A stretch of 64,000 nt of DNA from Azolla caroliniana. Taxonomy: Eukaryota; Plantae; Polypodiophyta. Of this stretch, positions 9,849 through 45,825 are shown piece by piece. The translations under genes were made by a program, and so were the position numbers. The notes beneath the pieces were generated by a model. The model did not search any database, was not told the origin of the DNA, and saw only the letters and a program-made list of their open reading frames with translations. Where the stretch lies: the NCBI GenBank assembly GCA_043228905.1, contig JBHGNT010000013.1:2666001-2730000 (forward strand), read 5' to 3'. Position 1 is the first letter of the stretch, and every line of letters begins with the position of its first letter.

Positions 9849-9901
9849 GATTCGAACCCATGACCTACCATCACATGGGTTGAAGCCCTACCATTGAGCT
9901 A
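9849..9901 (-). promoter_or_regulatory. tRNA-like Pol III A-box/B-box cassette in the family-2 LTR
   Basis: Minus strand reads TAGCTCAATGG, 32 nt, GGTTCGAATC, then TTTTT. Confidence 0.65.
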
Positions 9902-9969
9902 TATATTATAATACAAATTTCATTTATTTTTTCACTATAGAAAATTGATGTATATTCCAGATTTCTCTA

Positions 9970-9987
9970 GAACATTCGAGAAACTTC
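9970..9987. promoter_or_regulatory. Heat-shock element (4 alternating nGAAn units) upstream of the LTR TATA box at 10008
   Basis: GAAcaTTCgaGAAacTTC. Confidence 0.7.
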
Positions 9988-10180
9988 AGGAGTACTCCTG
10001 ACAACACTATATAAGGAGGCACAATGCATTATTTCGAACCAATTCGGTTCAACGCCAAACTTAAGCCTCCTAGCTATTCTTGTACTTTTCATATAATATA
10101 TCACCTGTTATCATCATTCTCTCTCTCTCTCTCTCTCTAACACTAATGGTTTTACATGTAGAAAACACAACAGAAATAGT

Positions 10181-11903: not shown

Positions 11904-12061
11904 TATCATGAACACATGACCATTATGGCGTCACTCAGACTTGAACCTCGAACCTTGTAATTCATACTTGAAAACCTCAACCATTAAGATAGCTTATTGT
12001 TTTATGAAACAATAAAAGCTACTTCTTGTATTACATTGATTATTGTAAAAACTCTAGATTA

Positions 12062-12125
12062 TTCTAGAATGTTCTAGAATGTCCTAGAGCATTCTAGGTC
12101 TAGAACATTCTAGAACATTCTAGAA
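12062..12125. promoter_or_regulatory. Heat-shock element array in the family-1 LTR
   Basis: TTCtaGAAtgTTCtaGAA and GAAcaTTCtaGAAcaTTCtaGAA, about 25-90 bp upstream of TATAAA at 12151. Present in all complete family-1 LTRs. Confidence 0.75.
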
Positions 12126-12321
12126 ATCTCTAAGCTATCCTATAGGAACCTATAAATAAGCGCATACATGTATTCTCAAATCAATTCGAATCAACACCAG
12201 TCTTTAGCTTTCATTACATATCTTGTATCCATTCTCTTTCTTTCTCTATCTTATACATACATTCTTCTCTATCCTTCTTCCATCACTCTATCTTTTATCC
12301 TTGGTTCTGACAGTTTGATTC

Positions 12322-12371
<50 letters not shown>

Positions 12372-12396
12372 CCTCCTTTGTAACCATCCTGAAACC

Positions 12397-13560
12397 ATGG
12401 CTGCCATTAACTCAGAAGAATATCTCACCCTTGTTGCAGAAATGGAGAACCTTAAATCCAAGTTCGCATCTCTTGAAGTAGAGAATCAACGTCTACTTGG
12501 GGATCTACAGAAGGTTACTATAGAGAAGCAACAACAACAAGAGGAGTTCACGCGACGAGTGCAACAGTTAGAGTCGACAATCGTCGTGTTACAACAACAA
12601 AGGGTTGAAGGTTAGGGACTTATCAAGGAGCCCAAAATTAGCCTCCCAGCTAAATTTGATGGGTCGAGGGCGCATTTCCGAGGTTTTTTGAATCAAGTAC
12701 GGTTGGTGATTCAAATGCATCCCGCACGTTATCCAACAGATGCATCACGAGTCGGGCTAGTGGGCACTTTATTGACTGGCATAACGTTGTCGTGGTTTGC
12801 TCCATTGCTAGAGACCAATTCTCCTCTACTGAATAATTTCGAGGAATTTATCAAGGAATTTAAGGCTTGTTTCGGAGATACTGATGGGGCGAGAACAACT
12901 ATCAACAAGATTCGTACACTTCGTCAAGGTGATCAACCAGCTTCAACATATGCTGCCAATTTCCGTCTCATCGCAAGTGATATTCCTTGGGATGAACAAG
13001 CCCTAATGGAGCAATTCCGTTCAGGCCTTCGTAGTGATGTCAAAGACTTACTTCTTACCTTCCCTGAGGATCCAAGGTCACTTACAGAAGCTATTAGTCG
13101 AGCAATACGGTGTGATAATTGCCTTTTTGAGCGTCGATGTGAGCGACAACAACAAATAACAAGATCTAGATTCACACCAACTTATGCATCAGTAACGGCG
13201 CAATCATCCCCAAGGCAAATGTATAGCCCTGATCCAACTCCAAGGCAAACACGTAGTCCAGTCCTAATGGATAGTCCTACACCCATGGAGATCGATATGA
13301 CTCAACGACGAGGACCGTTGTCAGACGAAGAGAAGCAACGTCGTCGAGCAAACCATCTGTGCTTATATTGTGGAGGTCCAGGACATATAGCCATTCATTG
13401 CTCCCGTAGGCCGAGACGTCAGGTAAATCAAATTCACTATGACAATAAAAATGAGTCCAACATTTTAGAAGTAGTTAGTGAATCTAATATTATGAATAAT
13501 CCACCCTTGTCCAATAAATTTGAAGTCCTAAGCCAATTAGAAGAGGAGTCAAACGAATAA
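12397..13560 (+). pseudogene. Chromovirus gag (coiled coil, capsid, CLYCGGPGHIAIHC knuckle) with one internal stop
   Basis: ORFs 12397-12615 and 12688-13560 are in frame. An intact homologue lies at 60312-61475. Confidence 0.9.
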
Positions 13561-16500
13561 GTCCGGCCAAAATAGGAGCCATTTGGTTGGACAACCCTAG
13601 ATATGTACAACCTAGTGTGGGTTCCATTTCTTCCAAGCATGTTAGTAGAGTCTTCTCAGCCCTAGTACAAGTTAGGACACCCAGTTGTCAACTTCAAGTC
13701 CAAGCCCTCTTAGATACTGGAGCCATTTCTTGTTTCATGTATAGAGATTTTGCCCAAAAACACCAAATATCCTTGCATACACTTCCTTGTCGAGTTTCCG
13801 TAGTAGTGATTGATGGACGCCCCATAGCTTTCGGGAAGATATTTGAAGAGTCTGAGCCAATACACATACTCTTGGGTGATTTAGGATGTGTAGTTTCCTT
13901 TAACATAATCCGTAGTCCTGAGCATCCAATTGTCCTCGGTTTGCCATGGTTCGAGCTACATAACCCTAGAATCGATTGGAGGAAGCGAGAAATTAGGTGG
14001 CCTTTAGCAGAAAATATCATTGTCAAGGATCGAACTCGGGATTATCCTCCCAAAGTATATAGTTCTACCGATGCACCATATCTTTCTCATAAAATTTCAG
14101 CCATCACATTGCAACAATTGCACCAAGTGGGAGGCAAGGAGGACCTTTTCTTTTTTGCAGTATCAGTGACACCTTCTAGTGTCACTCAAGGGAATTCAGA
14201 CATCCAAATTCCCAAAAAATATCAAGACTATGCTGATGTTTTCGACAAAGTCAAAGCTAGTGTTCTTCCAAAGCATCGGCCGTACGACTGTCCTATTGAT
14301 CTCCAACCAGGAAAAGAGCCTCCATGGGGTCCGATTTACAATTTATCACCCACTGAGCTTGAGGTTCTTCGAGAATACATCGAGGAAAATCTTGCACATG
14401 GGTTTATTCGACATTCAAAGTCTCCAGCTGGTGCTCCTATCTTTTTTGTGAAGAAATAGGACGGCTCCCTTCGTTTGGTCGTGGACTATCGAGGCTTAAA
14501 TAAAGTCACCATAAGGAATAGGTATGCTTTACCTTTAATCTCCAATCTCTTAGAACGCATTGGTGGGGCAAAGCATTTTACCAAAATTGATCTAAGGGGT
14601 GCATATAATCTTGTTCGAATTCGGCCAGGAGATGAGTGGAAAACAACATTTCGTACTCGGTATGGTCATTTCGAGTATATAGTCATGCCTTTTGGGCTCA
14701 CAAATGCACCTGCCGTATTCCAACATATGGCAAATGACATCTTCCGGGATTTCTTGGATATTTTTCTAATCATCTACCTAGATGATCTATTGATTTACTC
14801 TAAAACACAGGGGGAGCATGATATACATGTGCGGCAAGTACTTGAACGCCTAAGGAAGTATGGTCTTTACGCCAAACTTGAGAAATGCAGTTTTCATTGC
14901 AAACAAGTCGAATTTTTGGGATACACTATTTCATCCTAGGGTGTTTTCATGGACCCGGCAAAAGTCCAAACAATATTGGTATGGAAACCCCCATGCTCAG
15001 TTCGGGATGTCCAGTGTTTCCTCATATTTGCGAACTTCTATCGCAAATTCATACATAATTATTCAAGCATTGTGTTGCCCCTTACTCGACTCACCAAGAA
15101 AAATCAAGCATTTTTTTGGAGTATCGAAGCAGACAAGGCTTTTACGCAGATGAAAGAGGCATTCACATCAGCGCCCATCCTAGCACATATTGATCCTGAA
15201 AAGCCATTTACTATTGAGGCGGATGCATCAGACTTTGCATTGGGGAGTATCCTATCGCAACCAGGCGAGGACGGGCAGATACATCCAGTCGCGTTTCACT
15301 CGAGAAAGTTTACTGTTTCGGAGATAAACTATGAGGTGCATGACAAGGAGTTACTAGCTGTGGTCGACTCATTCGAGCAATGGCGTCATTTTTCTAGAAG
15401 GATCACCTCATCAGATTATCATTTATAGTGATCACAAAAATCTCACATATTTTCAAACAGCTCGAGTATTAAATAGACGACAAGCTCGGTGGGCCCAATT
15501 TCTAACGCGTTTCGATTTCAAGATCATTTTTCGCCCCGGAAAACAACAAGGGAAAGCAGATGCTCTATCTCGGCGTTCGTATCTAGCACTTTGACCTGGA
15601 GATCCGGCCTTTGACAATCAAAAGCAAACTCTCCTCGGGCCATCAAAGCTACAGGTAACAACAATTTATGCCACACCACTTGATTCTACCCTTCTTGACA
15701 CTATTCGGCAACAACTTCATTCGGATGATTTTGCTAAGGATGTCTTAGCCCACTGTGGTTCAAGTCGTCCATCTTGCTCCACATTGCCAGGGTCATCTCA
15801 ACATTATCAGGACTTCAAGTGGCAAGATGGTTTTCTCTTCTACAAGAATCTCCTTTACGTCCCCGACGGATCACCCCGACTTCAAGTGTTGGAACATTGT
15901 CATGATGCCCCCATGGCTAGACATTTTGGTATTTCCAAGACCATTGAGCTGGTGAAACGTTCGTTTTGGTGGCCTCACTTGCAAAAATTTGTCGAAGATT
16001 ATGTTCGCACTTGTGACACCTGCTGTCGCGCCAAAATACCCCGGCATCACCCTTATGGCTTACTACAACCATTACCCCCTCCCAACAAGCCATGGCAGTC
16101 TATTTCTATGGATTTCATTACGGATCTGTCACCTTCCAAAGGCTTTGATACTATTTTAATAGTAGTGGATCGGTTCACCAAGATGGCACATTTTGTACCA
16201 TGTGTAAAGACCATCAATAGTGAAGAAACTGCAGATCTCATTATGTGTGAAGTGTTTCGCTATCATGGTCTCCGGAATGATATTATTAGCGATCGAGGTC
16301 CTCAATTTATCTCACACTTTTGGAAGCACCTATGGGCAGGCCTCAAAAACTCTTGCAAACTCTCTTCGGCTTATCATCCACAAACTGACGGACAAATAGA
16401 GCGCACAAATCAAACGCTCGAGCAATATCTTCGATGTTTCATTAGTTATCAACAAGATGATTGGAGTAAAATTTTACATCTTGCCGAGTTTGCGTACAAC

Positions 16501-17217
16501 AACACGGTCCACTCTTCTACCAAAGTTACACCTTTCTTTGCCTACACCGGCAACCACCCTCGATGGTGTATACTGGATCTTCCCGAGGTGTCACGAAACC
16601 CTAGTGCGGCGCATCACCTCCACCGACTACAACAAATCCAGTTCGAGTTATCTTCACATCTTCAGAAAGCGCAAGCACACCATAAGACCAATGCCGATCG
16701 ACATCGTCTTAAGTCTCCGTTTAAGGTTGGTGACGGTGTATGGTTGCTTCGTCGTCACATCAAGACTACCCGATCGTGTGCTAAGCTTGACTATCAACGC
16801 TTAGGTCCTTTTGTCATCACGGCGCAGATTAATGATGCAACATTTTGTCTTAACCTTCCTGCACATATGCGACTTCACCCTGCCTTCCATAGCTCACTTT
16901 TGGAACCTTGCCACACCTCTTTAATTCCTAATCGTGTCGTGCCACCACCGCCTTCTGTACAACTTGTGGACGACCCTGAATACGAGGTAGCTGCTATTCT
17001 CGATTCTAAGATTGTGCGCAATAAGCTTTATTATCTAGTTGATTGGCTTGGTTATCCTCCAAGTGATCGCACTTGGGAACCCATCGATAACGTTTGTAAT
17101 GCTGAAGCTCTGGTCAACGACTTCCATCGTCACTATCCAAACAAGCCCGGCCCAACAATGTTAACGCCGACTTCCACTCGGCGTTCTCGAAGGTGGGATA
17201 GTATCATGAACACATGA
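13548..17217 (+). pseudogene. Chromovirus pol (PR LLDTGA, RT YLDD, RH, INT, chromodomain) in the -1 frame relative to gag
   Basis: ORFs 13587-14459, 14475-14939, 14949-15428 and 15784-17217. C-terminal EYEVAAILDS..YLVDWLGY..TWEP. Confidence 0.93.
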
Positions 17218-18335
17218 CCATTATGGCGTCACTCAGACTTGAACCTCGAACCTTGTAATTCATACTTACATTCTTCTCTATCTTATACATACATTCTTCT
17301 CTATCCTTCTTCCATCACTCTATCTTTTATCCTTGGTTCTGACACTATGCATTTGAGAACACATGCAATCTTGGAGATATTAAGTGTTGGGTCCTCAAGA
17401 AATATCTTTTCAACACTTTGGTAGCACCAATTCTTCTCTATGGGGTGGAAGTATGGGGCGGTAGCGTCCCTAAATCTATGTGGAAAGAGTTTGAAAATGT
17501 CCAAAAACATTTTCTTACAAAGTTTCTACAAGTTAAGAAACAAACGCCCTACACCCTCCTCCTCGAGACGGGATCGCTTCCCATTGAGATCATGTCCATG
17601 GAAAGGGTTGATGAATACATGCTTAAGGTTCAAAAAAGTCCCTCAATTGACTTCCTAGAATTGTGTGGGAAGCAAGCAAAAAGATCCAAAAGACGCATAA
17701 AAGCAAAATTTTGTGTTTCGGTTGGATGCAAGATATAGAAAAATGGTTTGGTAGATGGGATGCAAGACACTTGCTTCATGATGCATCATTAGATTCCTTT
17801 GTAAATGAGGCCTTTTTGCAACACCAATGTATCATGACATGGGACAAATGTGGAGGCTCGCGCTTCACACATTATACTACACATGTTGCACCTAACTACA
17901 AAACCATATTCTTTGCGGAACAGGGAAATCGTACACATCGATACATGGTAAAACCCATATCGTTATCTGCCATTTGAACCATTGCTTCCATGCGACTTAG
18001 CTCACATGCATTGCGATGTTAAACAAGGTGTTGGGGCACAAGTGCTGAGAGTGGTCGGCTATGCACACTTTGCCCTAAACAAGTTCGCGAGTCTGAGTAT
18101 CACACTTTGATACAATGCTCTACCTTTGATCATATTCGACCATGCTTTCCACATCTCTTAGATTGAGCCCAATCTTTGCATGAATTCCTCTCACAACCAC
18201 AATGTGCCCTCTCAATTGCAACATTCATTGGAAAAGTTCTTGAACATTGAGAGTCACTACTCACTTTCCCACGTATCACGTGAAATGTAATATTTTTGGT
18301 CTCATAGATCATATTTGACCTCCGAAAACGATAAT

Positions 18336-18371
<36 letters not shown>

Positions 18372-21238
18372 GTCTTACACACTCACTTCCTCTTAGTACT
18401 AATCCTCATAGTAGTTTCCTTCTCTAGTACTAATTCTCTCTCTGTTTTTAGTACTATTCCTAACAGTTTGAACCGAATTTAGTCATCCTCTTATCCCTCG
18501 TTCCCTTCATACTAATCCTCTTATCCTCCCTAGTAAATGGCAACTGTTAGCGCTCAAGCATACCAATCTGTTTTCTCGGAGCTCCAATGCTTAAAAGATA
18601 AGTTTGTAGCACTAGAACAAGAAAATCACCGTCTGTTGGGGGATCTTCAACAAATAGCTCTAGAAAAACAACAACACGGGGAGCTGACGTTACGTGTGTA
18701 ACAACTTGAAGCGACTATTGTATCATTACAAAAACAAGGATCTGTTGGCATAAAAGGCCGACTCCTTCCACTTTGTATCCTAGTGTGAAGTCGTCCATAT
18801 AGTTAGGGCTTAGTATATAAGAGATAACCTAACATTGTAAAGAGTATGCTTGATCATCTTGTACATCGAGTCTCAAAGAGAGAGAAAACAGAAATAAAAG
18901 AGAGCTTCTAGTAAAGCTTCATCCGTGCGTGTCTATTATTTGTCTAGATCTTCTTGCCTTCCCTTTGTGTTGTTTTCTGAGTATAACCAACAGGTCCTCA
19001 CATACGTTTCCGCGCATATCTGTCCTTCAACCGGTATCAGAGCGATCCGCAGCTCGGCGACAACAAACAACAAAAAAAGCTGAAAAGAAAAAGACAAGGT
19101 TAGCAAATCTCACTTTCAAAACAATCATGGCATCAACATCTGGTACAGGAGTTGAGATTCGAAAATTCGACGGCAAAAACTTTGCCCTATGGAAGGAGAT
19201 GATGCAGGATGTACTGATTATTCGAAGACAGGTCGAGGCCATTCGACACTCTGAAAAGCCTGCTTCAATGTCAGCCGATGAGTGGAGATCAATGGAAGAA
19301 ATTGCACGCTCCACCATTCGAATGCACTTAGCCAAAAATGACTACTTCAGCATGGCAAAAGAGACGACATCGTTCGCATTATGGGAGAAGCTACAAGCCG
19401 TGTACGAGAAAAAGTCCTCATTTTCAAAATTGATCACCAGTAGTCAAGATGACCACCCTCCGACTCTTACTAGGAGTTGTGGCGACAGACGATCTAGAGC
19501 TCGAGCAAATGGACATAAAGACGACATCCCTACACGGAGATCTGGAAAAAGACATTTCCATGTCTCAACCGGTAGCCTTCACGGCGATAGAGGAGGAAAG
19601 TCACCTCGTATGTTGACTGAAGAAAAGCCTCTATGGCTTGAAACAAGTGCCTAGGATGTGGTACCAGAAGTTCGACTCCTACATCAGGTAGCTTGGATAC
19701 CGTCGATTAGACTCCGACCCATGTATGTACATTCGGCAACTCGTCGAGGAGTCTAGGATTTATCTGATCCTATATATCGACGACATGCTGATTGTAGGAA
19801 GCAATTAAGTAGAAATCGGAAAGCTTAAGCAGAGCCTTCACGACAAGTTTGTGATGAAGGAACTTGGACAAGCCCATCACATATTGGGCATGAGGATCGA
19901 GCGAAATCGGACGACAAAGACTCTCCGACTCTCCCAATCTGATTATATCCGGAAGGTGCTAAAGTGTTTCAACATGGAGAATGTGAAGCCAGTACCACAC
20001 CGTTCTTGACGTCGATTAGACTATCAGACAGAGACTCTCCTTCAACGGACAAGGAGAGAGAGCTTAATGGAAAGATGCCCTACGTATCGGCAGTAGGAAG
20101 TATCATGTATGCAATGGTGGCGACCCGACCCGATCTAGCCTATGCCATAGGGGTGGTGAACCAGTACATGTCAAACCCAAGACAAAAGTATTGGGAGGTT
20201 GTCAAGCACATCTTCAGGTACCTGAGAGGGACCGAATATACATAGCTGACTTTTGGTCTACCAACTTTAGCCAGAGTCAAAGGCTACACTGACTCCAACT
20301 ATGCCAGAAATACGGACAATCGGAAGTCCACATCAAGCTATATTTTCACCTATAGTGACGGTGCAATATCATGGAGGTCGAAGCCTCAAGAGTGCACGGC
20401 CCTGTCGACCACAGAGGCCGAATGCATAGCAACATCGGAGGCAGGGAAGGAAGAGAGCAACTGTCTGTCGACTTCTCATCTACAAGTCGAATCGACCTAC
20501 CTGCGCCGACCATCTATTGCAACTCACAGAGCGCAATTCACCTCATTAACCATCCCGTCTATCACGCAAAGACGAAGGACATTGAGGTATGGTATCCTCA
20601 CATCCAGGAGCTCATAACTGAGAAGAGGCTCGAAGTCCGGAAGATCAACACCGAGGTGAACATCGCCGATTGCATGACAAAGTCACTCCCAGATCAACGC
20701 TTCGGAGCACTAAGGACAAAGATGGGACTACGACAAGCGATCAAGCAGAAGAATGCTGAACGAGGAGCAGAATATAAGAGTCGACCGAATCAATCATGAT
20801 AATGAGCCATGCTAGGCTCGACATGGACCTAACGTATGCCGACTCGACTATATGCCAAACGATTTGTAACATAAATGTAGATTAGTATTGTAATCTAGGT
20901 TTACAAGGGAGATAACCCCAAACACATATACATGTAGGAAAGAGTAGTCCTTTTACGGAGGAGTTTGTTGGCATAAAAGGCCGAGTCCTTCCACTTTGTA
21001 TCCTAGTGTGAACTCATCCATATAGTTAGGGTTTAGTATATAAGTGATAACCTAACGTTGTAAAGAGTATGCTTGATCATCTTGTACATCGAGTCTAAGA
21101 GAGAGAGAGAGCGAGAAAACAGAAATAAAAGAGAGCTTCCATTAAAGCTTCATCCTTGTGTGTCTATTATCTGTCTACATCTTCTTGCCTTCCCTCTGTG
21201 TTGTTTGCTAAGCATAACCGACAGGTCTTCACATATGA

Positions 21239-22451
21239 TGTCGTGAAGATTTTCAGCAACGGTGTGAAAATCATGTGGAAAGGAGAAAACCGAGAAGGGT
21301 TCACTTTCGCGCTTCTCTCATTGTTTTCTTCACAGTGAGTTATTCCACATATATATGCAGCTAACATGACTCTCTCTATATAAAGACTTACTTACTTATA
21401 TATATATATATATATGACTATGTATATATATGTGTGTGTGTATATTCGTATGAACTTCTGTTCCGCCTGCTACTATTCGACCGAATCCCGTTTCGGCTTT
21501 TCAGTCGATTTTGGCCAACTGACTTTTGTTTTGGCTTTCTGACCGATTTCAGCTGTCGAATCCCATTTCGGCTTCTCGGTCGATTTCGGCCAACCGACTC
21601 TTGTTTTAGTTTTTTGACCAATTTCGACAGCCGACACCCATTTCGGTTTTTTCGGTTGATTTTGGCCAACTGACTTTTGTTTTGGCTTTCTGACCGATTT
21701 CAGCTGTCGACTCCCATTTCGGCTTCTCGGTCGATTTCGGCCAACCGACTCTTGTTTTAGTTTTTTGACCAATTTCGACAGCCGACACCCATTTCGGTTT
21801 TTTCGGTTGGTTTTGGCCAACCGACTCTCAATTCGGTTTTTCGACTGACTCCCCCCCACAAGGAGGGACAATCTTACATAACTCAATTGACTTACCTAAA
21901 AGTTGTATTTTCATCATTATACTTTTTCATATGTAAATTCTCATACATGAGAGCTTGCATGAGTGACATGGTTATCATGCATCACATTTAATGCATGAGC
22001 GCCAAATGGCAAACATGCATCGCATGAATTTCATGCATTGTATGCATGTCTTGCACCCTCACATGCATTGTCTGCATGTCTTGCACTGTCACATGCATCA
22101 TATGTATGGGGTGCCCATCTATAAAAGAGTGAAGGAAAAAGAAAAGGGGAATCAATGAATGAATGAAGCGAGCTATGTACTGATCAAGAAAATAATAATA
22201 AAAAATCTAGTTATCCTACTAGTGATGTATCTTGTCCCTCAAAATCTTTTCTCTCAATCTGTCTCATAATTGGTATCTTCTCTTTAAATCTATCTCTGAA
22301 TTAGAATCTTCGTCTCTCAATCTCTCAATCTCTTCCTCTGTACCTATCCTAAATACTTTCTCGCTAAAGCTAGTACAACCTTCGAATCCTTCCGGTCCAG
22401 GACCCCGGTGGTCCCGCTTCCTTTCGCGAACACGCAAGGATTTCCTCGACA
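21239..22451 (+). mobile_element. Chimeric Phygy-type solo LTR containing a Copia-B-type LTR fragment
   Basis: Starts TGTCGTGAAGATTTTC and ends CGACA, like the LTR at 45214-46226. About 21296-21882 matches Copia B LTR 6157-6448. Confidence 0.8.
21480..21845. repeat. Tandem array of about 38-bp units with an approximately 151-bp higher-order period
   Basis: TTGGCCAACTGACTTTTG recurs at 21511 and 21662. CGATTTCGGCCAACCGACTC-type monomers; a shorter version is at 6330-6420. Confidence 0.85.
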
Positions 22452-22482
22452 ACATTTCCACGCATATCTATCCTTCAGGATT

Positions 22483-24921: not shown

Positions 24922-27900
24922 TGTCAGAACCAAGAATAAAAGATAGAGTGATGGAAGAAGGATATAAGGGAACACGAGAAGAAAGGAACGAAATGCTAAG
25001 AGAAGAATGGGTGTATTAAGACAGAGAAAGAAAGAGAATGGATACAAGATATGTAATGAGAGCTAAAGACTGGTGTTGATTCGAATTGATTTGAGAATAC
25101 ATGTATGCTCTTATTTATAGGTTCCTATAGAATAGCTTAGAGATTTCTATAATGTTCTAGAATGTTCTAGGACATTCTAGAACATTCTAGAATGATCTAG
25201 AGTTTTTACAATAATCATTTTAATATAAAAAATAGCTTTTATCCTCTCATATGACAATAAGCTATCTTAATGGTTGAGGTTTTCAATTATGGATTACAAG
25301 GTTCGAGGTTCAAGTCCGGGTGATGCCATAATGGTCATGTGTTCATGACACTATCCCTCCTTCGAGAACGTCGAGTGGAAGTCGGCGTTAACATTGTAGG
25401 GCCGGGTTTGTTTGGATAGTGGCGATGGAGCTCGTCGACAAGAGCTTGAGCATCACAAATGTTATCGACAGGTTCCCAAGTGTGATCACTTGAAGGATAG
25501 CCAAGCCAATCAACTAGATAATAAAGCTTATTGCACACAATCTTAGAATCGAGAATAGTAGTTACCTCGTATTCGGGGCCGTCAACCAGTTGGACAAAAG
25601 GCGGCGGTGGTTCGACACGATTAGGAATTAAAGAGGTGCGGCAAGATTCCAAAAGAGAGCTATGAAAGACTGGGTGAAGCCGCATATGTGTAGGAAGGTT
25701 AAGACGAAATGTTGCATCATTAATTCGCGTTGTTATGAGAAAATGACCTAAGCGTTGATAATCAAGCTTAGCACACGGGTGGGTAGTCTTGATTTGACGA
25801 AGAAGCAACCATACACGGTCACCGACCTTAAACGGAGACTTAAGACGATGTCGATCGGCATTGGTCTTATGGTTTGCTTGCGCTTTTTGAAGATGTGAAG
25901 ATAACTCAAACTAGATTTGTTGTAGTCAGTGGAGGTGATGCACCGCACTAGGGTTTCGCGACTCCTCAGGGAGATCCAAGATACACCATCAAGGGTGGTT
26001 GCCAGTGTAGGCAAAGAAAGGTGTAACTTTGGTAGAAAAGTGTACCATGTTGTTGTATGCAAACTCGTCAAGATGTAAAATATTGCCCCAATCATCTTAT
26101 TGATAACTGATAAAGCATCTAAGATACTGCTCGAGTGTTTGATTTGTGCGCTCAGTTTGTCCTTCAATTTGTGGATGATAAGCCGAAGAGAGTTTGCAGG
26201 AGATTTTGAGGCTTGCCCATAGGTGCTTCCAAAAATGTGAGATAAATTGAGGACCTCAATCGCCAATAATATTATTTGGCAGACCACGATGGCAAAGAAA
26301 CACCTCACGCATAATGAGATCTGCAGTTTCTTCAATACTAATGATCTTTACACACGATACAAAATGTGTCATCTTTGTGAACCGATCCACTACTGTTAAA
26401 ATACTATCAAAGCCTATGGAAGGTGGCAGATCCATAATAAAATCTATAGAAATAGATTGTCATGGCTTTCTAGGAAGTGGTAATGGTTGTAGTAAGCCAT
26501 AAGGATGATGCCTGGGTATTTTGGCGCGACAGCAGGTGTCACATGTGTGAACGTAATCTTCAACAAAGTTTTGCATGTGACGCCACCAAAATGAACGTTT
26601 CACCAGCGCAATGGTCTTGGCAATACTAAAATGTCCAGCCATGGGGGCATCATGACAATGTTCTAACACTTGAAGTCGGGATGATCCGTTAGGGACGTAA
26701 AGGAGATTCTTGTAGAAGAGTAAGCCATCTTGCCACTTGAAGTCTTGATAATGTTGAGATGATCCTTGCAATGTGGAGCAAGATGGACGGCTTGAACCAA
26801 TGTGGGCTAAGACATCATTAGCGAAATCATCAGAGTGATGTTGTTGCCGAATAGTGTCAAGAAGGCTAGAATCAAGTGGCATGGCATAAATTGTTGTTGC
26901 ATGTAGCTTTGATGGCCCGAGGAGAATCTTCTTTTGATTGTTAAAGGCTGGATCTCCAGGTCGAAGAGCTACATACAAACGCCAAGACAAAGCTTTTGAT
27001 TACCCTTGTTGTTTTCCAGGGTGAAAAATGATCTTGAAATCGAAACGCGTTAGAAATTGGGTCCACCGAGCTTGTCATCTATTTAATACTCGAGTTGTTT
27101 GAAATTATGTGAGATTTTTGTGATCACTATAAATGATAATCTGATGAGGTGATGCTTCTAGAAAATGACGTCATTGCTCGAATGAGTTGACCACAGCTAG
27201 TAACTCCTTATCATGCACCTCATAGTTTATCTCCGAAATAGTAAATTTTCTTGAGTGAAACGTGATTGGATGAGTCTGCCCGTCCTCACTCCCCAATGCG
27301 AAGTTTGACGCATCCACCTCAATAGTAAATGGCTTTTCGGGATCAATATGCGCTAGGATAGGTGCTGATGTGAATGCCTCTTTCAGTAGATTAAAAGTCT
27401 TGTCCGCTTCGATACTCCAAACAAATGCTTGATTTTTCTTGGGGAGTTAGGTGAGGGGCAACACAATGCTTGAATAATTACGTATAAATTTGCGATAGAA
27501 GTTCACAAATCCGAGGAAACACTGGACGTCCCGAACTGAGCATGGGGATTTCCATTCCTATATTGTTTGTACTTTTGCCGGATCCATGAAAATACCCTTG
27601 GATGAAATAGTGTATCCCAGAAATCTGACTTGTTTCCTATCAAAATTGCATTTCTCAAGTTTGGCATAAAGACCATACTTTCTTAGGCATTCAAGTACTT
27701 TCCGCACATGTATATCATGTTGCTCCTGTGTTTTAGAGTAAATCAACAGATCATCTAGGTAGATGATGAGAAAGATATCCAAGAAATCCCGGAAAATGTC
27801 ATTTGCCATATGTTGAAATATTGCGGGTGCATTTGTGAGCCTGAAAGGCATGACAGTATACTCGAAATGACCATACCGAGCACGAAACGCAGTTTTCCAC

Positions 27901-28738
27901 TCATCTCCCGGTCGAATTCAAACAAGATTATATGCATCCCACCAATGCGTTGTCGTGAAGAAAACCGGCCTTAGGAGGAATCGATGAATAAGACGCATGA
28001 ACCGGCCCTTACGTGCGGCCACAAGTATTGATAAGATGTAAATAATTAGGAATAGGTCGGTTGATGTAAATATACTAGGTAGTACACATTTATTAGCTAG
28101 GAAATCGATGCGTATCTCTGTCCGAAGGGACTGAGAATAAAGATGATATATTCAAGATGTGACGGCCCTCCCCAATGGCCTATAAAAGAAAAGGGGAGAT
28201 GGCTGAAAGAGGTATCGCGTTTTGGGAAGGACGAGGTGTTGTCGGACTGGGAACCAAGCTCTCTCCACCTTTATCGTTGTTCTCTACGGGTTTTGGGATG
28301 GTTGCCTCTGCTTCGAGGAAAGCCCGAGTGCTTCTGGCAGGGCTCCACCGTGTGCGTGTGTGTGTGTGGTCACCTGTGTTGGGTCTGTTGCCGGCTTGCC
28401 GGTTGTAATCTTGCAAACGCTATAATCTTTCTTATTATTGGAATCGATTCTCCTGTTTTCTATCCCTCTGTGTTTCTGTGAGTCTCTTGTTACGTCGTAC
28501 GATGAGCGTGCATCTTGACCGATCGGTGTATGCGTTCGCGATTCAGTCAACTGGTAAGCATTGTCGGTTGTAATCAGGCCTAGCCGGCTCTACGCCTGCG
28601 TACTTCTCCCTCCGTCTTCTTTCTCTTGCTCCTCAGTTCAGGGCCCCCGCAATCCTGCCTTATTTTCCTACACGTGAGCGGAACAACACGACATATTTGG
28701 TGAACCTGACGTGAAACAAGGCGACAGAGGAGTCGAAG

Positions 28739-37218: not shown

Positions 37219-38926
37219 AGGGTTTTGTGGGTTCGCCAGACAACGTCCTGGCCCACGAGCATGCCAAGTGTTACACGGACAAGTATAGATACGTCGGAGT
37301 CGAAAGGATGTTCGAAGTCGAAGTCGAAGTCGGATCGACAGTTCGGATCGATGACTCAGCAAATAGCTGTATAAGACATAGTTAGTTACGAAGTTTTGTA
37401 ATTCTTGATAATTATAGGCAATAGGATTTCTTGATTAGAAAAAGACCTTCGGGTTACCTATAAAAGGAAACCAAAGGCATTGTAAACATCTATCGTCGTA
37501 TTTAGTAATATAAAGTTTGGTTAGGAAATCTCTGTGTACGGATTGCTTCTTGCCCTCTAGTCTTTCTGTCTAAACTATATTACATAAGTCACGATCTCGG
37601 TGTCTGTTATCACTGATAAGTTTACAGATAATTCGTATTTATTTGTTTAACCGCAACTTCTTCATAGAACGTTCGGTACGAACGTTCATCTTATACTATG
37701 TCGGCAAAATAGCAATTGTCGACCAAACAACAGTGCAGGAGACATCCTCTTACTCAGTGATACTCGGCGAACCGTACATTACGACAGCACACATGGAGAC
37801 AAAGGTGCTAGATAATGTTTCAGCGTACACACGCGTGAAGAGCCAAGATGGGCGACACTCCGTCCAATTTCTGACAATGCGACCAAACCATAAGCGTTGT
37901 CATGAAGATTTTCGGCAATAGTGTGAAAATCCCATAAAACGTACGAAATCGAGTATAAATCACGTAATACAATAATTGTGAAGATAACATTTTTAATATC
38001 TAAGTACAAAATGATGGAGGTTTCGAATGCACTTTATTACACGAGAAATGGACAACTAAATGTCAAGATATGAGGGTATAAAGTTTGTGAAAAGAAAAGA
38101 GAAAATTGTGAGATATCCCACATAGGCACGACAAATACGGCTCTCATCATATATAAGGTGGAGCAAAAGATATTATCTTTGTGTCTATGTGTGGAGCATA
38201 GAGAGTTCAAGGTAACTTGAACTAAGAGTGGAGGTGGCTAGCTACTCGTAAAGGGTTTTGGCCAACCAAAACCGGACCGGCGATGGAGCCGGTGATTTGA
38301 CGGCATCCGACCGCAATCCGGCGGCGGCACCGGTATCCGACGACGGCATCCGGCGGCATCCGGCGGCGGCACCAATATCCGGCGAGGCACCGGCGTCCGG
38401 CGACTAGATAAATAAATATATAAATATATATACATATTTACATATACAAGGAGGGCAAGTATGGATTCAAACCTTGCACCTCCAAGTTAGGAGTCAATTG
38501 GCTTACCATTAAGCCATGCTATTTAGTTAAAATTATATTTCTATCATTGTACTTTTACATGTAAATTCTCATACATGAAAGCTAAAATGAGTGACATGGT
38601 TAGCATGCACCACATGTAATACTTAAGCGCCAAATGGCAAACATGCAATTTATGCATGTCTTGTACCCTCACATGCATCATATGCATGAGAGCATCTATA
38701 AAAGAGGGAAGGGGGAGGAGAAAAAAACACGGTTTTTTTTATGAAAATTAAGAGGAAGAAATTTGTTATGAAATCAATCGTGTAATCTCAACTTCTCTCT
38801 TTCCCAATCTATCTTAAGTACTTTCTCGCCAAAGCTTGTATCGACTCTAAATCCTTCTGATCCAGAACCCCGGCGGTTCCGCCTCACGATCCGCACGTAG
38901 TGACGGATCTTCATGACATAATTAAG

Positions 38927-38943
38927 TGGTGAACCCGACGTGA
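38927..38943 (+). promoter_or_regulatory. Primer-binding site complementary to the 3' end of plant tRNA-Trp
   Basis: TGGTGAACCCGACGTGA; the outer element has a variant at 28698. Confidence 0.8.
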
Positions 38944-38985
38944 AAGAGGCGGTAGGAAGGATCAAGTCGAGATTAATACTTGGAG

Positions 38986-41181
38986 ATGGCGTCCTCAAGC
39001 AACCACGCAGGAGTGCTCGAAAGGATGATGCTAATCGTCGAGCAAATGATGAGATCTCGGGACAACGATGCGAGCGTGGAGAAGGTTGTCGATCGTGTCG
39101 TAGAGCTCGAGGGCCAATTCGATGGAAGGAACGTTACGAAGTTCCTTGATGCATATAGAAGGGAGATGAATCAAAGGGACGTGTCCAAGGCACGTCAAAT
39201 CGCAAGCTTCAAGAGAGTTGTCGCCAACAACATCCAAAGATGCGTCATCGAGCTTCAAGAAGGTAAGACAACATGGTCCGAGTTCGAGAAAATGATACTA
39301 GCGGAGTTCGTGACTGAAGACTCAACGAGGATGACTCGACATGCCCTGATGAAGTGGATAGAGAAGAAGAATAAGAAGATGAGCGTCTCGAGGGTGTACG
39401 ACGAATTCGACCAGATGTTTAGTCGTCTCCCCAATACGGACCAAGTGTTGCTTGAAGAGGACAAGACTTTGTACTTCTTGAAGGCCGTGGACATAAAGGA
39501 TAGACGGGAGTTGGGGACTCTTCTCGAAGATGATACCCAAGCAAATGGGCTCGTAGCGGACTGGATCGCGGTGAAGCGGGCATGCAATAGGCTCGACAAG
39601 CGTCGCCAATGGGTTGATGACACTGACTTGACGGGACCGACTACCACGGAGAAAGCAAGACCGCCGAAAGTAGCTGAGCCACTGAGGCAAAGTAACGTGG
39701 AAGAAAAGAAGATTGATGACGACAGCATTGAAGAGCTAGCGAAGAAGTTCGAGAAGGTCACGCTAGCCAACATGAATCGTCGGGGCCCTAAAGGAAAAGA
39801 ACCCTTTAGATACGTGTGGTGCGATAGCATGGACCACATGAGAAGGGATTGTGCGAGCCTTCGAGAGGCGATTCGACAAAATATCGTATACATAGAGGAC
39901 AACATGATCTGCTCAAGCGAGACTAGAAGACCCCTACGGGTGAATTTCGGAAGAGGAGGAATGAAGAAATCTATGGAGGATGTCGATGCGACTCATGTGG
40001 ATGCGATGCACTATGCTGCATCGGCCGGAATAAGAGTCGGGAAAGACAAGACTGAAGCTGCTAGAGCGGGAGCAAAGTTTTGGACTTCCGTTCTCGAATA
40101 TGAGAAGAAGGGAAAAGTCACATCGAACGAGGTAGAGCTTGCGGACCGAAACGTGCAAAGCATAACCGGGTGGTCGGATCCGGTGGACGACAACACCATA
40201 CTCGCAGAGGTGATGTGCGACAACCACGAGGTGTTCATCGAAGAAAAGAGAAAGAGAATAGAAGAGCAAGGCCCATCAAAAAGATATGAAACAAGGAACG
40301 CGAAAAAGAAGGACGATACGGAGACGAGTCGACCTTTACAAACGGAGGAACGAGAATCAAGCCGAAAAGGGGAGCCAAGCATACGAGTTGAAGAAATGGC
40401 TCGGCCCGTGAAGGTTGGTGTCGAAGACCCCACTCGGAGGACAAGGACTATACCTACCTATAAGCTAAGGTCGGACATAGAGCAGACGACGGACCTAAAG
40501 AAGATTCTCGAAGAACGAGTTCTTGATAGCCACGTAACTTTGTCCTTGAGGGAATTGCTTGGCATTACGAAGGAGTTCCACGACACGATCGTGGACCTTG
40601 TAAAGAGAAAGAGACAACAATCGGACGAGGAAGAAGAGAAGCCGCAAAAAGCAAAAACGAATGCTATAACGATGGCAAGAGACGAAATCGATGAAGATAT
40701 GGTGGACAGCCACTACACTCGACCTCATTGGGCACGAGCGACAACGGAGACGCCGGTGAAGATCGGGGAGAAGAAAGAGACCGTCGTAGCCTTGATCGAC
40801 CACGGCTCGGAGATCAACCTCATGTCAACCGACTTCTACAAAAAGGGAAGATGGCCAATCAATACAAACCACGGATGGAAGATTCGCGCGGCAACAAAGT
40901 CTACGGAGGACTTGTACGGAGCTTGTCCCAATGTCAAAGTCACGATCGGGGATGTGGAGATGGATCAACACTTCTTCGTACAAGAATCGGCGTCGCATCC
41001 TGTCATCCTAGGGCAACCTTATATCACATCATCTCGGATGGAGACCAGAGTGTTCGATAATGGAGCAGCCTTCGCACGAATAAAGAGTATTGACAACCAA
41101 AGATCGGTCCAATTCCTAACGGTGCGAGCCAATCATGAAAGGAATCGAGATAGTCTCGGAGACGAATCCTCGGATTTTTAG
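38986..41181 (+). CDS. Gag-protease polyprotein (open frame)
   Basis: Uninterrupted 731-codon ORF with FDGRNVTKFL, a degenerate knuckle xVWCDSMDHMRRDC and protease ALIDHGSEINLM. Confidence 0.88.
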   Translation: MASSSNHAGVLERMMLIVEQMMRSRDNDASVEKVVDRVVELEGQFDGRNVTKFLDAYRREMNQRDVSKARQIASFKRVVANNIQRCVIELQEGKTTWSEFEKMILAEFVTEDSTRMTRHALMKWIEKKNKKMSVSRVYDEFDQMFSRLPNTDQVLLEEDKTLYFLKAVDIKDRRELGTLLEDDTQANGLVADWIAVKRACNRLDKRRQWVDDTDLTGPTTTEKARPPKVAEPLRQSNVEEKKIDDDSIEELAKKFEKVTLANMNRRGPKGKEPFRYVWCDSMDHMRRDCASLREAIRQNIVYIEDNMICSSETRRPLRVNFGRGGMKKSMEDVDATHVDAMHYAASAGIRVGKDKTEAARAGAKFWTSVLEYEKKGKVTSNEVELADRNVQSITGWSDPVDDNTILAEVMCDNHEVFIEEKRKRIEEQGPSKRYETRNAKKKDDTETSRPLQTEERESSRKGEPSIRVEEMARPVKVGVEDPTRRTRTIPTYKLRSDIEQTTDLKKILEERVLDSHVTLSLRELLGITKEFHDTIVDLVKRKRQQSDEEEEKPQKAKTNAITMARDEIDEDMVDSHYTRPHWARATTETPVKIGEKKETVVALIDHGSEINLMSTDFYKKGRWPINTNHGWKIRAATKSTEDLYGACPNVKVTIGDVEMDQHFFVQESASHPVILGQPYITSSRMETRVFDNGAAFARIKSIDNQRSVQFLTVRANHERNRDSLGDESSDF

Positions 41182-44100
41182 AGCGGACTATTGAAGCATG
41201 GGGCACAAATAGTCCGAGCAATCACAAGACCCCACAAGAAAGAAGAGTGTGTGGATTGCAAGGAGAAGCAACATGTGTCACACCTAGTGGCGCATGTAAA
41301 CTAGTACTACCCGACAAGAAGCACAAGCACCGGATACAAGAATTCGAGAAGATGCTGAAAGAAGAGAACATAATAGAAGAAGGGGAGTTCGTGACTCATA
41401 TTATGGAAGAAGCCTCATTTAACGACACCATCGGCGAAATCGAGGACGTCGTGGACTTGAGCTATCTTCACAACCAATGCGTGATTTCGGTTAACTCCGT
41501 CAACATGTACGCTATCATCGATGAATACCGTCGTGGCATCTCGATGAAGGAAGCTGACATCAACACGAAATATAAAACGGTGGATAAGAAGATCAAGCCA
41601 GTTGCGGTTCCGCTACTGGAAGATAGCTGGCAAAAGATGAAGGAAGTCGCTAATGATCCAAGCTTCAGAGATCCGAAGAAGATAGGTCATGTCTTCACCA
41701 AAGAGACGAAGGGGAAGCTACGAGTTGGAAAGGAGAATTTCCTTCTCCCTGAAGAGGACCAAATGTTTCGCGATATGCTTGAGAGACATGGGAAGGCTTT
41801 CGCATTCTTCCCACGAGAAATCGGATGCGCCGACCCAAAGGTTATAGAGCCGATGGTGATCTTCACGGTGCCTCATGTGCCTTGGAACTTGAAACCGATA
41901 CCGGTTCCGAGAGCACACCTTCCGAAGCTGATCGAGCTCTTAAAGGAGAAGGTGAGTATGGGAATTCTAGAACCGTCGAATGTGTTGCGAGACAGGTCCC
42001 TCCGGATGGGAAGGGAGAAGAACGGTACGAGGAGCACCCGGCTACGGAGAGCCGGATGCCGGATGAGGAGTACCTGGCTACGGAGAGCCGGATGATACAG
42101 GCCCGGTATGAACCGGATGAAGAGACATATTCGTAAATATGTTTCTGAGAGCCCATTGTGGCTATATTTGTAAATAGCCGAAAAGTCATATTAGTATAAA
42201 TATGACTTAGGGCAAAACTAATTGTGTTGTTGTTACTTTTCTTGTTGGTGCAAGAAGAAGAGAGAGCACGTAATAGTGTACAGAGTGAGAGAGAGAGAAA
42301 GAGGTCGTTGCCTCTGTTGTAACCGCCGCCTGTGGCGAAGATCGTGAGCACGAGGTCGTTGCCTTTGTGAACTCACTGTTTTTGTACATTTCAACTTAGT
42401 GATAGTTTGCAGCCTGTGGGCTGCTGTGGTTTTTCCCTCTTTGGGTTTTCCACGTAAACATTTTGTGTACCCTTTTTTCTCTCCTTTGTGTCGCGTGTTT
42501 TCGTTTTCCTGTTTCCTGTGTATTAAAGAGGCTCGGTTGTGGCCGAGTGTTGGGTATAAGGAGCGTTGAGTTCCCGACAATGCTCCTTATTCCAATAGGT
42601 GGTTCACGGTGCCGAAGAAGAATGGATCATTGCGATTCATCCAAGATCTTCAACCCGTCAACAAGGTGACAATTCGAAATGCCGGAATCGGTCCGAGCGT
42701 GGACGAATTTGCCGAAGCGTTTGCGGGCCAGTCCATCTACTCCATTGGTGAATGCCATGAATGCCATGAATAAAGTCTTGAAGGATTGCTTTCCGGACAT
42801 CACGATGTCATTCTTGGATGATATTCCGATAAAAGGATGTTCGGATGAGGAGAAAGATGAATCGAAAGATAAGGAAGGTTGTAGAAAGTTCGTTGCGGAT
42901 CATATGAAAGATTGCAAGAAGGTGCTTCAAAGGCTCGAAGATGCGAATTTGACATTTTCGGGAGAAAAATCCGCATTCGGGCAACCGGAGATCTTGGTGG
43001 TAGGTCACTTGTGTGGAGCATACGGCCGGAAGCCCTCGCCATCCAAAGTGAACGCAATCCAAGACATGAAAGAAGAATGTGAAAACCAAACGGAGGTTCG
43101 AAGGTTCCTTGGAGCGTGCGCGTTTTATCATATATGGATTCCTCACTACGCTCATGTCGTCGAACCATTATATGGACTACTAAAGAAAAGAATAAAGTTC
43201 GAATGGCGAGACGAGCACACAGAGGCGATGCGAAGATTAAAGAAACTGCTTCTTGAAGCTCCGGCACTAAGGAAGGCCGACTATGCCGAAGGGAAACCAA
43301 TTTACGTGACCGTAGATACGAGCCCAACCGGAATCGGGTGGGTCATCAATCAAGAAGGTGAAGATAATGCGCGATATGCCGTCCAGTTCGGAGCAAAGGT
43401 TCTCAGCGAACGGCAACAAAGATATGCCCAAGTCAAGCGGGAACTTTGGGGTATTGTGTCGGCAGTGAAGACGGACAAAGATTACCTGATCGGGTCAGAA
43501 GTGATAATAGAGACAGATTGTCTTCCAATTCTCGGAATGGTCTCGGGATGTGCGACCCCAGATCTTGCTATGCTAAGGTGGATCGCCTACATCAAGTCTT
43601 TAAACCCAGAGATCCGTCACATCGCAGGGAAGAAGAACGCCATGGCTGACATGCTGTCGAGGGCAAGATTTTCAAATGGAAGTAACATGGTTTCGGAAGA
43701 TGAAGATGTCTCCCTCAACTTCTTCAAGATGGCTCGATTGTCGGCGGAAGACCAGGACACGCAAACCCTCCACGCCTTCAACGAGAACGAGTACGAAGGA
43801 GAATGGTTACTCATCGGTAGATTCCTAAGAACATTGACGACAAATGCTTCGTTGACAAAGGAGGAGACCCTACGAATCTGAAAGAAAGCTTATCGATACT
43901 TCTTGAAGGGAGGATTCCTTTGGAGACATCCAAAAAGAAGGACAGGAATACCACGTCGAGTGGTGGTAAAGAAAGAAGAGCAAGAGACGCTGATGACCGA
44001 ATTCCACGAGAGTGCTTGGGCAGGTCATAGAGGAACATGGGCGACGTTCGAAAAATTGAAGGAGAAGTACTGGTGGCCAAGCATGTACAAAGATGTACTC

Positions 44101-45141
44101 CATTTCGTGTCCACATGTGAAACTTGCCAAATATATTCAAATATACGTCATCGTGATGAGTTAAAGCCGACATACCCACTCACCATTCACTTCAAATGGA
44201 TGGTGGATCTGGTCTCGATGCCAATGGGAGTGGGACAAATGAAGTACTTAGCGCTCGCAAGGGAAGACTTGACAAATCAAGTGGAAGGACGAGCCTTGAC
44301 AAATAAGACGACTTCAGCCGTTTGTAAATTTTTACTTGAAGATGTTGTTTGCCGATATGGATGTGTAGGGAAGATAGTGGCCAACCGAGGGGAGTTGGAC
44401 GCGCACGAAGCGACGGAGCTCTTCGAAAGACTAGGCGTGAAGCTCTCCCTCACGACTGCCTACAATCCGGAAGCAAATGGGAAGATCGAGCGAGGGCATG
44501 GACCTATCGTTAAAGCCATCGTACGGGCATGCAACGGTCGAGTCGGGAATTGGCCACGACTATTACCCTATGCCTTGTGGGCCGATAGAACGACACATAG
44601 CTCGGTGACAGGGTATATGCCGACGGAGCTTATGTATGGACAAAAGCCGATTATGCCCATCGAAAGGACGATCGCCTCATGGGTAGCGATACCGTGGGAG
44701 AACGAGATGAGCCGAGAAGAGTTATTAGCGGCGCGGATAAGGCAACTTGAAAGAAGACCTGAAGATTTAGAAAAAGCGCGAAAGATGATGAAGGCAGCCC
44801 GAGTAAAGAACAAAGTTCGGTTCGACAACACGCATCGACTTCGTCCCAAGAAGATTGAAGAAGGGGATTGGGTTTTGGTTTACGACAGCACCCTTGACAA
44901 TCAACATAGTACAACAAGGAAGTTCGCAAGAAGATGGTTCGGGCCGTATGTGGTGACAAGTGCCAACGATAATGCCACATACCACCTTGCGGAACTAGAC
45001 GGATCAAGGTTGGCCGTACCCATTGTGGGAAAAAGAGTAAAGCTTTTCAAGAAAAGACAAGACAAGGATCCTGACCTCGATTACCTCGACGATGAACATA
45101 ATAGGCCGGATGAAAATGAAGACATGGAGGAATCTAATTGA
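41172..45141 (+). pseudogene. Pol (RT, RH, INT) in the -1 frame; broken by a solo LTR, an RT deletion near 42745 and a stop
   Basis: FLDD, VDTS, ETDC, GHRG..CETC, NPEANGKIERGH and WFGPY motifs. Confidence 0.9.
41983..42579 (+). mobile_element. Copia solo LTR (Copia A-related) inside the Phygy-like RT
   Basis: TG..CA ends and similarity to 2215-2780. The host frame EPSN|APYSNRW rejoins. Only an ATG duplication is visible at the flanks. Confidence 0.85.
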
Positions 45142-45771
45142 TCATCGTAGCCGAAATCTCACTTCTTCTCTTCTTGGCACGTACCGGAGGACGTGCGGTT
45201 TGGTGGGGGTGGATGTCGTGAAGATTTTCGGCAATAGTGTGAAAATCCCATAAAACGTACGAAATCGAGTATAAATCACGTAATACAATAATTGTGAAGA
45301 TAACATTTTTAATATCTAAGTACAAAATGATGGAGGTTTCGAATGCACTTTATTACACGAGAAATGGACAACTAAATGTCAAGATATGAGGGTATAAAGT
45401 TTGTGAAAAGAAAAGAGAAAATTGTGAGATATCCCACATAGGCACGACAAATACGGCTCTCACCATATATAAGGTGGAGCAAAAGATATTATCTTTGTGT
45501 CTATGTGTGGAGCATAGAGAGTTCAAGGTAACTTCAACTAAGAGTGGAGGTGGCTAGCTACTCGTAAAGGGTTTTGGCCAACCAAAACCGGACCGGCGAT
45601 GGAGCCGATGATCCGACGGCATCCGACCGCGGCATCCGGGAACCGACGGCATCCGGCATTCGGTATCCGGCGAGGCGGCGGCACCGGTATCCGGCGAACC
45701 GGCGTCCGGCGACTAGATAAATAAATATATAAATATATATACATATTTACATATACAAGGAGGGCAAGTAT

Positions 45772-45825
45772 GGATTCGAACCTTGCACCTCCAAGTTAGG
45801 AGTCAATTGGCTTACCATTAAGCCA
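45772..45825 (-). promoter_or_regulatory. tRNA-like Pol III A-box/B-box cassette in the Phygy-like LTR (second copy at about 38463-38516)
   Basis: Minus strand reads TGGCTTAATGG, 32 nt, GGTTCGAATCC; D-stem GCTT/AAGC. Confidence 0.7.

Follow-up and report, generated by a model that had tools for sequence, protein, structure and literature searches.

Why should retrotransposons that encode their own proteins and have an RNA polymerase II (Pol II) promoter keep part of a tRNA gene, backwards, in their long terminal repeats (LTRs)? The question is raised by a 64,000-nt stretch of Azolla caroliniana DNA (contig JBHGNT010000013.1, positions 2,666,001 to 2,730,000; hereafter the window), a nest of plant retroelements. 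LTRs of three Gypsy families in it, the Tcn1-type chromoviruses F1 and F2 and the Phygy-like F3, contain a cassette of the tRNA-type RNA polymerase III (Pol III) promoter, consisting of an A box, 32 or 33 nt and a B box. The answer that we favour, tentatively and with slightly less than even confidence, is that the cassette acts as DNA, as a putative site for TFIIIC and TFIIIB that would form a boundary or an opener for the Pol II promoter of the element.

Cassettes in the window

Seven sites were found by a motif scan and a decayed copy at 38463 by a scored scan, giving eight cassettes, all of them inside LTRs.

9848..9901, minus strand: F2 cassette; 32 nt between A box and B box, T run behind the B box; 4/4 D-stem positions paired; 16.6 bits with the Rfam tRNA model
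11937..11991, minus strand: F1 cassette in the 5' LTR; 33-nt spacer; internal T4 at tRNA position 25
25263..25317, plus strand: F1 cassette in the LTR 24922–25349 of a minus-strand copy
56586..56640, plus strand: F1 cassette in the 3' LTR 56230–56671 of a minus-strand copy
61914..61968, plus strand: F1 cassette in the 5' LTR 61558–61999 of the same copy as the 56586 cassette
62984..63038, plus strand: F1 cassette in the LTR 62643–63069
38463..38516, minus strand: F3 cassette in the 5' LTR; C56 lost
45772..45825, minus strand: F3 cassette in the 3' LTR; both boxes perfect, D stem paired, B box enclosed in a hairpin

The sites listed in an original prediction made from the sequence were found at their coordinates, with two single-base corrections. 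For two copies the site stood and the sequence given for it did not: the copy at 11937–11991 ends in GGTTCAAGTCT and not in TCC, and that at 38463–38516 has GGTTTGAATCC, with C56 lost. Three further F1 cassettes (25263–25317, 61914–61968 and 62984–63038) were added, all on the plus strand and antisense to minus-strand elements. The predicted antisense orientation and tRNA-type box spacing held for all eight copies, each of which is antisense to the open reading frames of its own element. The A box, expected about 100–190 bp upstream of the LTR TATA box, was measured at 107–184 bp (first A-box base to TATA 107 bp in F2, 160 bp in F1 and 181 bp in F3; 158–184 bp in six of seven cassettes).

On a fixed score for A box, variable loop and B box, the variable-loop term of which was added after the data had been seen, the eight sites reached 28.7–35.4 bits, and the best other site in the window 21.4 bits. 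Twelve block-wise shuffles of the window gave top scores of 13.1–26.2 bits and a mean of 0.25 matches of at least 20 bits. With the score reduced to the A and B boxes and applied to each LTR separately, none of 150 shuffles came up to the antisense site in F1, F2 or F3.

Occurrence in related elements

Relatives were retrieved from metagenome sequences (four of 64 parts) by integrase alignment and not by the motif, which gave 79 loci (from the best 80 of 580). The sample of close families was small because most of these loci were distant (40–50 % identity). The closest to F1 among those retrieved were L001/L002 (82 % integrase identity), L003 (67 %) and L004 (66 %), which together with F1 and F2 formed one clade (support 100/99; 1.0). 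The cassette was present, antisense, in all five LTR types of this clade, over integrase identities of 66–82 %, and its B box lay 30–39 bp from the LTR start, except for one case of 21 bp. L008 (56 %) had a weaker cassette at the same place, which alone was not significant (p=0.11). No cassette was seen by eye in L009 or L016.

In 477 kb of loci the pattern of shared residues matched only L001–L004, L008 and one tRNA called by ARAGORN in L040, a count that is circular for the families used to build the pattern and that shows its specificity. The L040 gene (14281–14353; called as Tyr, anticodon ATA) lies 6.6 kb from a distant Gypsy integrase, and could be a short interspersed nuclear element (SINE) or a Helenus-like unit. 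In viral contigs, single-protein queries and the Phygy alignment found no relative, and the Tcn1 alignment found four distant loci, none with the core pattern. Prokaryote genomes yielded one Phygy-like contig, L080 (62 % to F3), and one 431-bp fragment; L080, from a cyanobacterial genome assembly, is probably plant contamination.

Conservation of the promoter residues

When six U3 (unique 3') regions were aligned without an anchor, little was conserved besides the A-box core, variable loop and B box of the cassette and the end of the LTR. In tRNA numbering, A14, T16, G18, G19, T20, A44–T47, G53–C56, R57 and A58 were invariant in seven of seven cassettes; position 60 was a pyrimidine in all seven, and the spacer was always 32 or 33 nt. 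Mean identity among five distant Tcn1 families was 0.75 in the B box, 0.92 at positions 44–48 and 0.58 in the A box, as against 0.29 in the anticodon arm, 0.27 in the T stem (49–51), 0.30 downstream and 0.35 upstream. In the same five families, the boxes differed from the anticodon arm at p=0.0003, in an alignment anchored on the boxes. Between F1 and L001 one of 22 box bases differed, compatibly with the consensus, versus eight of the 27 bases in between (p=0.03).

Variation within F3 was read from contigs of four public runs (four coded organisms, three studies), with variants counted at 5 % or more. The A box had variants at two of 11 positions, both within the R9/R15 consensus, compared with 15 of the 23 that separate the boxes (p=0.026). 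None of the nine positions 43–51, which form a hairpin, was variant, and nine of 25 were in the 5' flank. What stays constant from family to family is the variable loop, the spacing and the residues of the Pol III promoter, and nothing else; the anticodon arm is at background. Both the tRNA derivation of the cassette and the selective retention of its boxes, as predicted, are supported.

This pattern bears on a neutral alternative, in which a tRNA-SINE head was put backwards into U3 and has been carried along as a relic, and its boxes seem conserved either because boxes were what was looked for or because of repeated capture. A relic would be expected to decay evenly, yet all seven cassettes agree at 15 positions, R57 counted, whilst their anticodon arm is no more alike than background; position and strand are fixed over a clade with 66–82 % integrase identity; and there is no SINE body, tail or target-site duplication (TSD), only 21–39 bp being left before the LTR end in the Tcn1 families. 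Within the window the shared core pattern was confined to LTRs, which is not the distribution of a dispersed SINE. The motifs do match the plant SINE boxes RVTGG and GTTCRA (PMC7315354), which stand 25–50 nt apart in six of seven cassettes (L008 has ATTGG). The distribution is also patchy, with losses, an origin by SINE insertion has been proposed for Helenus (PMC10886601), and degenerate tRNA-like heads occur outside LTRs at 54791 and 54957. On balance we give the relic little credence. The two heads (54791–54844 and 54957–55010; 20–21 bits) lie in tandem AT-rich repeats at 54757–55244, outside any LTR, which are possibly a decayed SINE array.

Fold, terminators and a possible antisense RNA

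ARAGORN called no tRNA in the window or in any of six plant-clade loci. The Rfam tRNA model scored the F2 cassette at 16.6 bits, below its cut-off of 29, and the F3 cassette was absent from the tRNA matches listed in the Rfam scan. As predicted, the arms are degenerate, acceptor stems pairing at 1–2 of seven and anticodon stems at 2–3 of five positions, and the cassettes lack the cloverleaf with acceptor and anticodon stems that marks a tRNA gene. The paired D stem expected in F3 was found in the copy at 45772–45825. No 5S match appeared in the Rfam scans, and the boxes are tRNA-type. Rfam microRNA matches were rejected, being below threshold and falling on palindromic heat-shock-element arrays.

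A conserved RNA structure was likewise rejected: there was no common fold, and z in the tRNA sense ranged from −3.1 to +0.8 over seven cassettes. A run of four T (T4) stood at position 25, 61, 73 or 81, or nowhere, so that no terminator is fixed. With neither a common fold nor a fixed terminator, a role at the DNA level is somewhat favoured.

It is against this background that an active Pol III gene has to be judged, from which a short antisense RNA (about 60–80 nt, complementary to U3 of the genomic RNA) would be selected; it would fine-tune or restrain its own element, or would be in competition with the divergent Pol II promoter. What transcription needs is preserved, namely both boxes and, upstream of them, the AT-rich tract; T runs follow the cassette at 61 (F2), 73 (L004) and 81 (L003); and sister subfamilies of F3, seen at loose contig ends, have a T5 run behind a motif of B-box type. 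The F3 cassette also folds better than shuffles of it (z −3.1), its hairpin positions 43–51 are variant-free (0/9), and D stems are mostly paired. The cassettes nevertheless share neither fold nor length, F1 has T4 at position 25, and within 30 nt past the B box no T4 run was present in F1, L001, L008 or the F3 of the window. An antisense RNA as the selected product is thus unlikely in our view. A long T4-free antisense transcript into the integrase was a separate candidate and failed the synonymous-codon control (F1, p=0.41; L001, p=0.04, unadjusted, 13 tests). A search of sequencing runs listed no RNA run with a match.

A proposed site for TFIIIC and TFIIIB

Promoter residues and spacing are retained whilst the stems are lost, as predicted for a DNA site that is bound by protein. 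TFIIIC grips the B box tightly and sets TFIIIB upstream; tRNA genes and extra TFIIIC (ETC) sites depend on this factor to act as barriers against heterochromatin, and a nucleosome-free region can be maintained by it (PMC12409998). In all seven cassette U3s an AT tract (0.80–0.90 over 40 nt) lay directly upstream of the A box, compared with 0.575–0.725 in six U3s without a cassette. Since the cassette faces outwards, TFIIIB would stand beside the enhancer on the AT tract, and a Pol III transcript would head away from the start site of the element.

The course of events that we propose begins with a tRNA or tRNA-SINE head, which would have entered U3 in reverse orientation and then reached both LTRs through reverse transcription. 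Host TFIIIC would then bind the cassette and place TFIIIB on the AT-rich tract facing the enhancer, and the bound factors would keep the Pol II promoter open and stop silent chromatin from entering from the flank. Any Pol III transcript would be a by-product.

Several observations weigh against such a site. The boxes of F1 and L001 did not differ significantly from the rest of the LTR (1/22 vs 57/378, p=0.23). The F3 B box falls in the edge zone of the run comparison, the left-edge limit of which was inferred, and is hence unreadable there; in another list of F3 variants position 62 was the sole B-box entry among the rows listed (41 more lay beyond). D stems pair at 3–4 of four positions in six of seven cassettes, which a role as DNA does not need, and the F3 cassette is 558 bp inside the LTR rather than at its edge. 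A review of plant barriers cites TFIIIB/TFIIIC barriers, in the part available, from yeasts and animals alone (PMC9540200), and tRNA genes outside the angiosperms have weaker AT-rich flanks (PMC13437025). Many relatives dispense with the cassette: besides its weakness in L008, it was absent from the short U3 of L005, the sister of L008, from L007, L013 and L021 on the scored scan, from the Phygy-like F4 (27951–28693) and from L080, the LTR limits of which are uncertain, and by eye from Selaginella SM-Tcn1 and from the first 400 nt of Physcomitrella (P. patens) RLG1.

Host elements and their promoters

The original prediction spoke of two Gypsy lineages, and two do carry the cassette, a Tcn1-type chromovirus and a Phygy-like Gypsy element. 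Their copies in the window are as follows.

11904..17344, plus strand: F1 Tcn1-type chromovirus; 5' LTR 11904–12312; gag, protease, reverse transcriptase (RT), RNase H and chromodomain integrase; 5-bp TSD; inside a long interspersed nuclear element (LINE)
9817..10138, plus strand: first part of the F2 5' LTR; cassette, AT tract, heat-shock-element array at 9970–9987, TATA at about 10009, self-primer at 10041–10052
18340..18480, plus strand: end of the F2 5' LTR (to 18466) and self-priming site; 12 nt complementary to the start of R (the repeat region)
37898..46226, plus strand: F3 Phygy-like Gypsy; LTRs 37898–38918 and 45214–46226; tRNA-type primer-binding site (PBS); no chromodomain; 4-bp NCGN-type TSD with one mismatch
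21239..22452, plus strand: F3b solo LTR, sister of F3; cassette destroyed, a copia-LTR piece replacing the B-box half and the A box being deleted

Tcn1 elements are known by a chromodomain together with self-priming (PMC6317226). Both a chromodomain integrase and a self-priming site were found, the latter complementary in F1 over 12 nt to its own R start, and the pattern of R start and PBS is as in SM-Tcn1. The SM-Tcn1 paper (PMC2864245) reports no priming site for this element; by eye, about 12 nt of the sequence that follows its 5' LTR are complementary to its R start, as in the self-priming of F1.

Four more F1 LTRs lie in the window (24922–25349, 56230–56671, 61558–61999 and 62643–63069), of which the second and third, from one minus-strand copy, differ at 11 of 447 bases. 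In the F1 3' LTR at 17201–17344, a deletion of about 270 bp removed the A box, the heat-shock elements and the TATA box. The LTRs of this copy, at 11904 and 17201, begin with TA and not TG, despite a clean 5-bp TSD.

F2 gag/pol pieces start at 18538, at 22489 (to 24919) and at 63074 and are about 70 % identical to F1. F2 was placed by its RT, in one clade with F1 (support 100/99), because its integrase end falls outside the window. A LINE at 10139–18339, itself interrupted by F1, splits the F2 LTR within its CT microsatellite; the order of insertion is F2, then the LINE, then F1. F1 and F2 have the same layout of LTR end, cassette, AT tract, heat-shock-element array and TATA box.

Nesting of copies in copies is what would be seen if the cassette recruited TFIIIB and so drew Pol III-targeted elements into the LTR, and the window is indeed a nest of elements. 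Yet all eight cassette LTRs are unbroken upstream of the A box, and the LINE in F2 lies about 240 bp away, in a CT repeat. A landing site is scarcely credible.

The way in which the elements are primed bears on a further alternative, that the sense strand of U3 pairs with the D and T loops of a host tRNA, as in Ty3, and bridges the RNA ends or aids packaging. Orientation and location agree with this, the T and D arms of the Ty3 primer tRNA pairing with U3 (PMC5371799), and in the Tcn1 families the cassette is close behind the polypurine tract. F1 and F2, however, self-prime over 12 nt, as do L004 and L005 by eye, and need no tRNA. Nor is the F3 cassette a copy of the primer, since the primer 3' end derived from the PBS matches only two of seven bases at positions 59–65. 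The conserved bases are moreover scattered promoter positions, with the T stem (49–51) at background (0.27), and we regard pairing of this kind as very improbable.

The enhancer between A box and TATA differs by family. Perfect nGAAn/nTTCn arrays, which are of heat-shock-element type, occur in U3 of F1, F2, L001 and L008 (in the window at 12062–12125, 9970–9987, 25155–25192, 56452–56515, 61780–61843 and 62876–62913). F1, F2 and the relatives that have these arrays are likely to be heat-inducible, judging by these motifs. U3 of L003, L004 and the F3 group has the composite GCCAAATGGC-N3-CATGC instead (at 38629, 45938 and 22001 in F3/F3b), presumably similar to an abscisic-acid-responsive element (ABRE) combined with an RY motif. 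Its presence in both Phygy-like and Tcn1 elements points to convergence or to a swap of U3 between lineages.

Gain, loss and transfer

Three LTR families had been predicted to carry the cassette, and they do, but not through three separate events, as F1 and F2 share theirs by descent. A single gain would explain the cassettes of F1, F2 and L001–L004. For L008 one would have to assume a second gain, or else an older one followed by several losses.

Phygy elements are described as chromodomain-free, with a 4-bp TSD of NCGN type (PMC6317226, PMC2864245). F3 is a compact non-chromovirus with an NCGN target (one mismatch in the TSD). Its nearest named relatives are Riccia and Ceratopteris proteins, which point to a seed-free land plant as host. 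Its LTRs differ at 17 of 1003 bases, and we take its PBS to be of the Trp-tRNA type. The sister LTR F3b retains the AT tract though the cassette is lost; its U3 includes about 590 bp related to the LTR region of a copia element (~6157–6448), with an expanded 75-bp repeat.

As the cassette is present in F3, destroyed in F3b and absent from F4 and L080, that of F3 would be either a separate gain or a U3 module from an L003/L004-like element. The only part of the proximal U3 of F3 that aligns with Tcn1 U3 is a motif of 18–19 bp, shared with two Tcn1 relatives (p=0.04 and 0.01, unadjusted, 21 pairs), which hints, and no more than hints, at a swapped module.

Taken more broadly, autonomous Gypsy elements of seed-free plants may use a captured tRNA promoter as a portable boundary that faces outwards and guards a stress-responsive Pol II promoter, with heat-shock elements or the ABRE/RY-like composite, in heterochromatin, and that either arose twice or moved between chromovirus and Phygy. 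This wider proposal is possible, though we would not count on it. If true, a retrotransposon would encode in cis a means against silencing, and there would be evidence for insulators of the tRNA-gene (tDNA) type in plants.

Comparison with known systems

Pol III promoters in LTRs have otherwise been described in tiny non-coding TRIMs (terminal-repeat retrotransposons in miniature), in which they are thought to drive the element. The Helenus paper expects Pol II promoters in autonomous elements; it remarks that 'not a few' LTRs in Repbase are similar to a portion of a tRNA, and it followed up only TRIMs (PMC10886601). The present cassette is kept backwards in protein-coding elements that have a Pol II promoter of their own, and a different role is therefore needed. 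Within the open literature and the few Repbase entries covered for tRNA-like or B-box elements in LTRs, only Helenus was relevant and none was described for autonomous elements; a prior mention is possible.

Cassandra, offered as a precedent in the original prediction, is indeed a land-plant retroelement with a Pol III promoter within the LTR, but the promoter is of the 5S rRNA type (A box, intermediate element and C box), the element is non-autonomous and the promoter drives its own transcript (PMC10886601); the cassette is not of 5S type. The closer precedent is the tRNA-type Helenus/TRIMp3: both of its LTRs contain sequence derived from a tRNA, conserved mainly around boxes A and B, and there is no functional tRNA (PMC10886601). 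Helenus is non-coding and 311–1263 bp long, whereas the hosts of the cassette measure 5.4–8.3 kb and have domains of gag, RT, RNase H and integrase. In the entries examined, the tRNA-like part of Helenus reads in the sense direction, and it is proposed to be the promoter of the element (PMC10886601), whilst here eight of eight cassettes are antisense and the hosts have a TATA box and an enhancer.

Ty3 resembles the present elements in that its U3 is complementary to the D and T arms of a tRNA (PMC5371799). The tRNA concerned is, however, its own primer, whereas F1 and F2 self-prime and the F3 cassette mismatches the primer, so that there is no bipartite PBS of the Ty3 kind. Among the nearest described plant elements, the LTRs of SM-Tcn1 and P. 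patens RLG1 were cassette-free by eye, and the available parts of PMC6317226 and PMC2864245 mention no cassette.

tDNAs and ETC sites share with the cassette a B box beside a Pol II unit (PMC12409998), here joined by an A box at tRNA spacing and known by its motif. They are host loci in yeasts and animals; in the sources seen, none was found described on an autonomous retrotransposon or in plants. If TFIIIC binds, a retrotransposon would need no anti-silencing protein for its promoter to stay usable within silent chromatin. The elements would also offer a test bed for tDNA-type barriers in plants: the LTR is short, its 11-bp box can be mutated, and sister LTRs without that box occur naturally. 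On its sequence, the cassette belongs neither with Helenus or Cassandra nor with tRNA genes, SINEs or the bipartite PBS of Ty3; what it resembles is a tDNA/ETC site.

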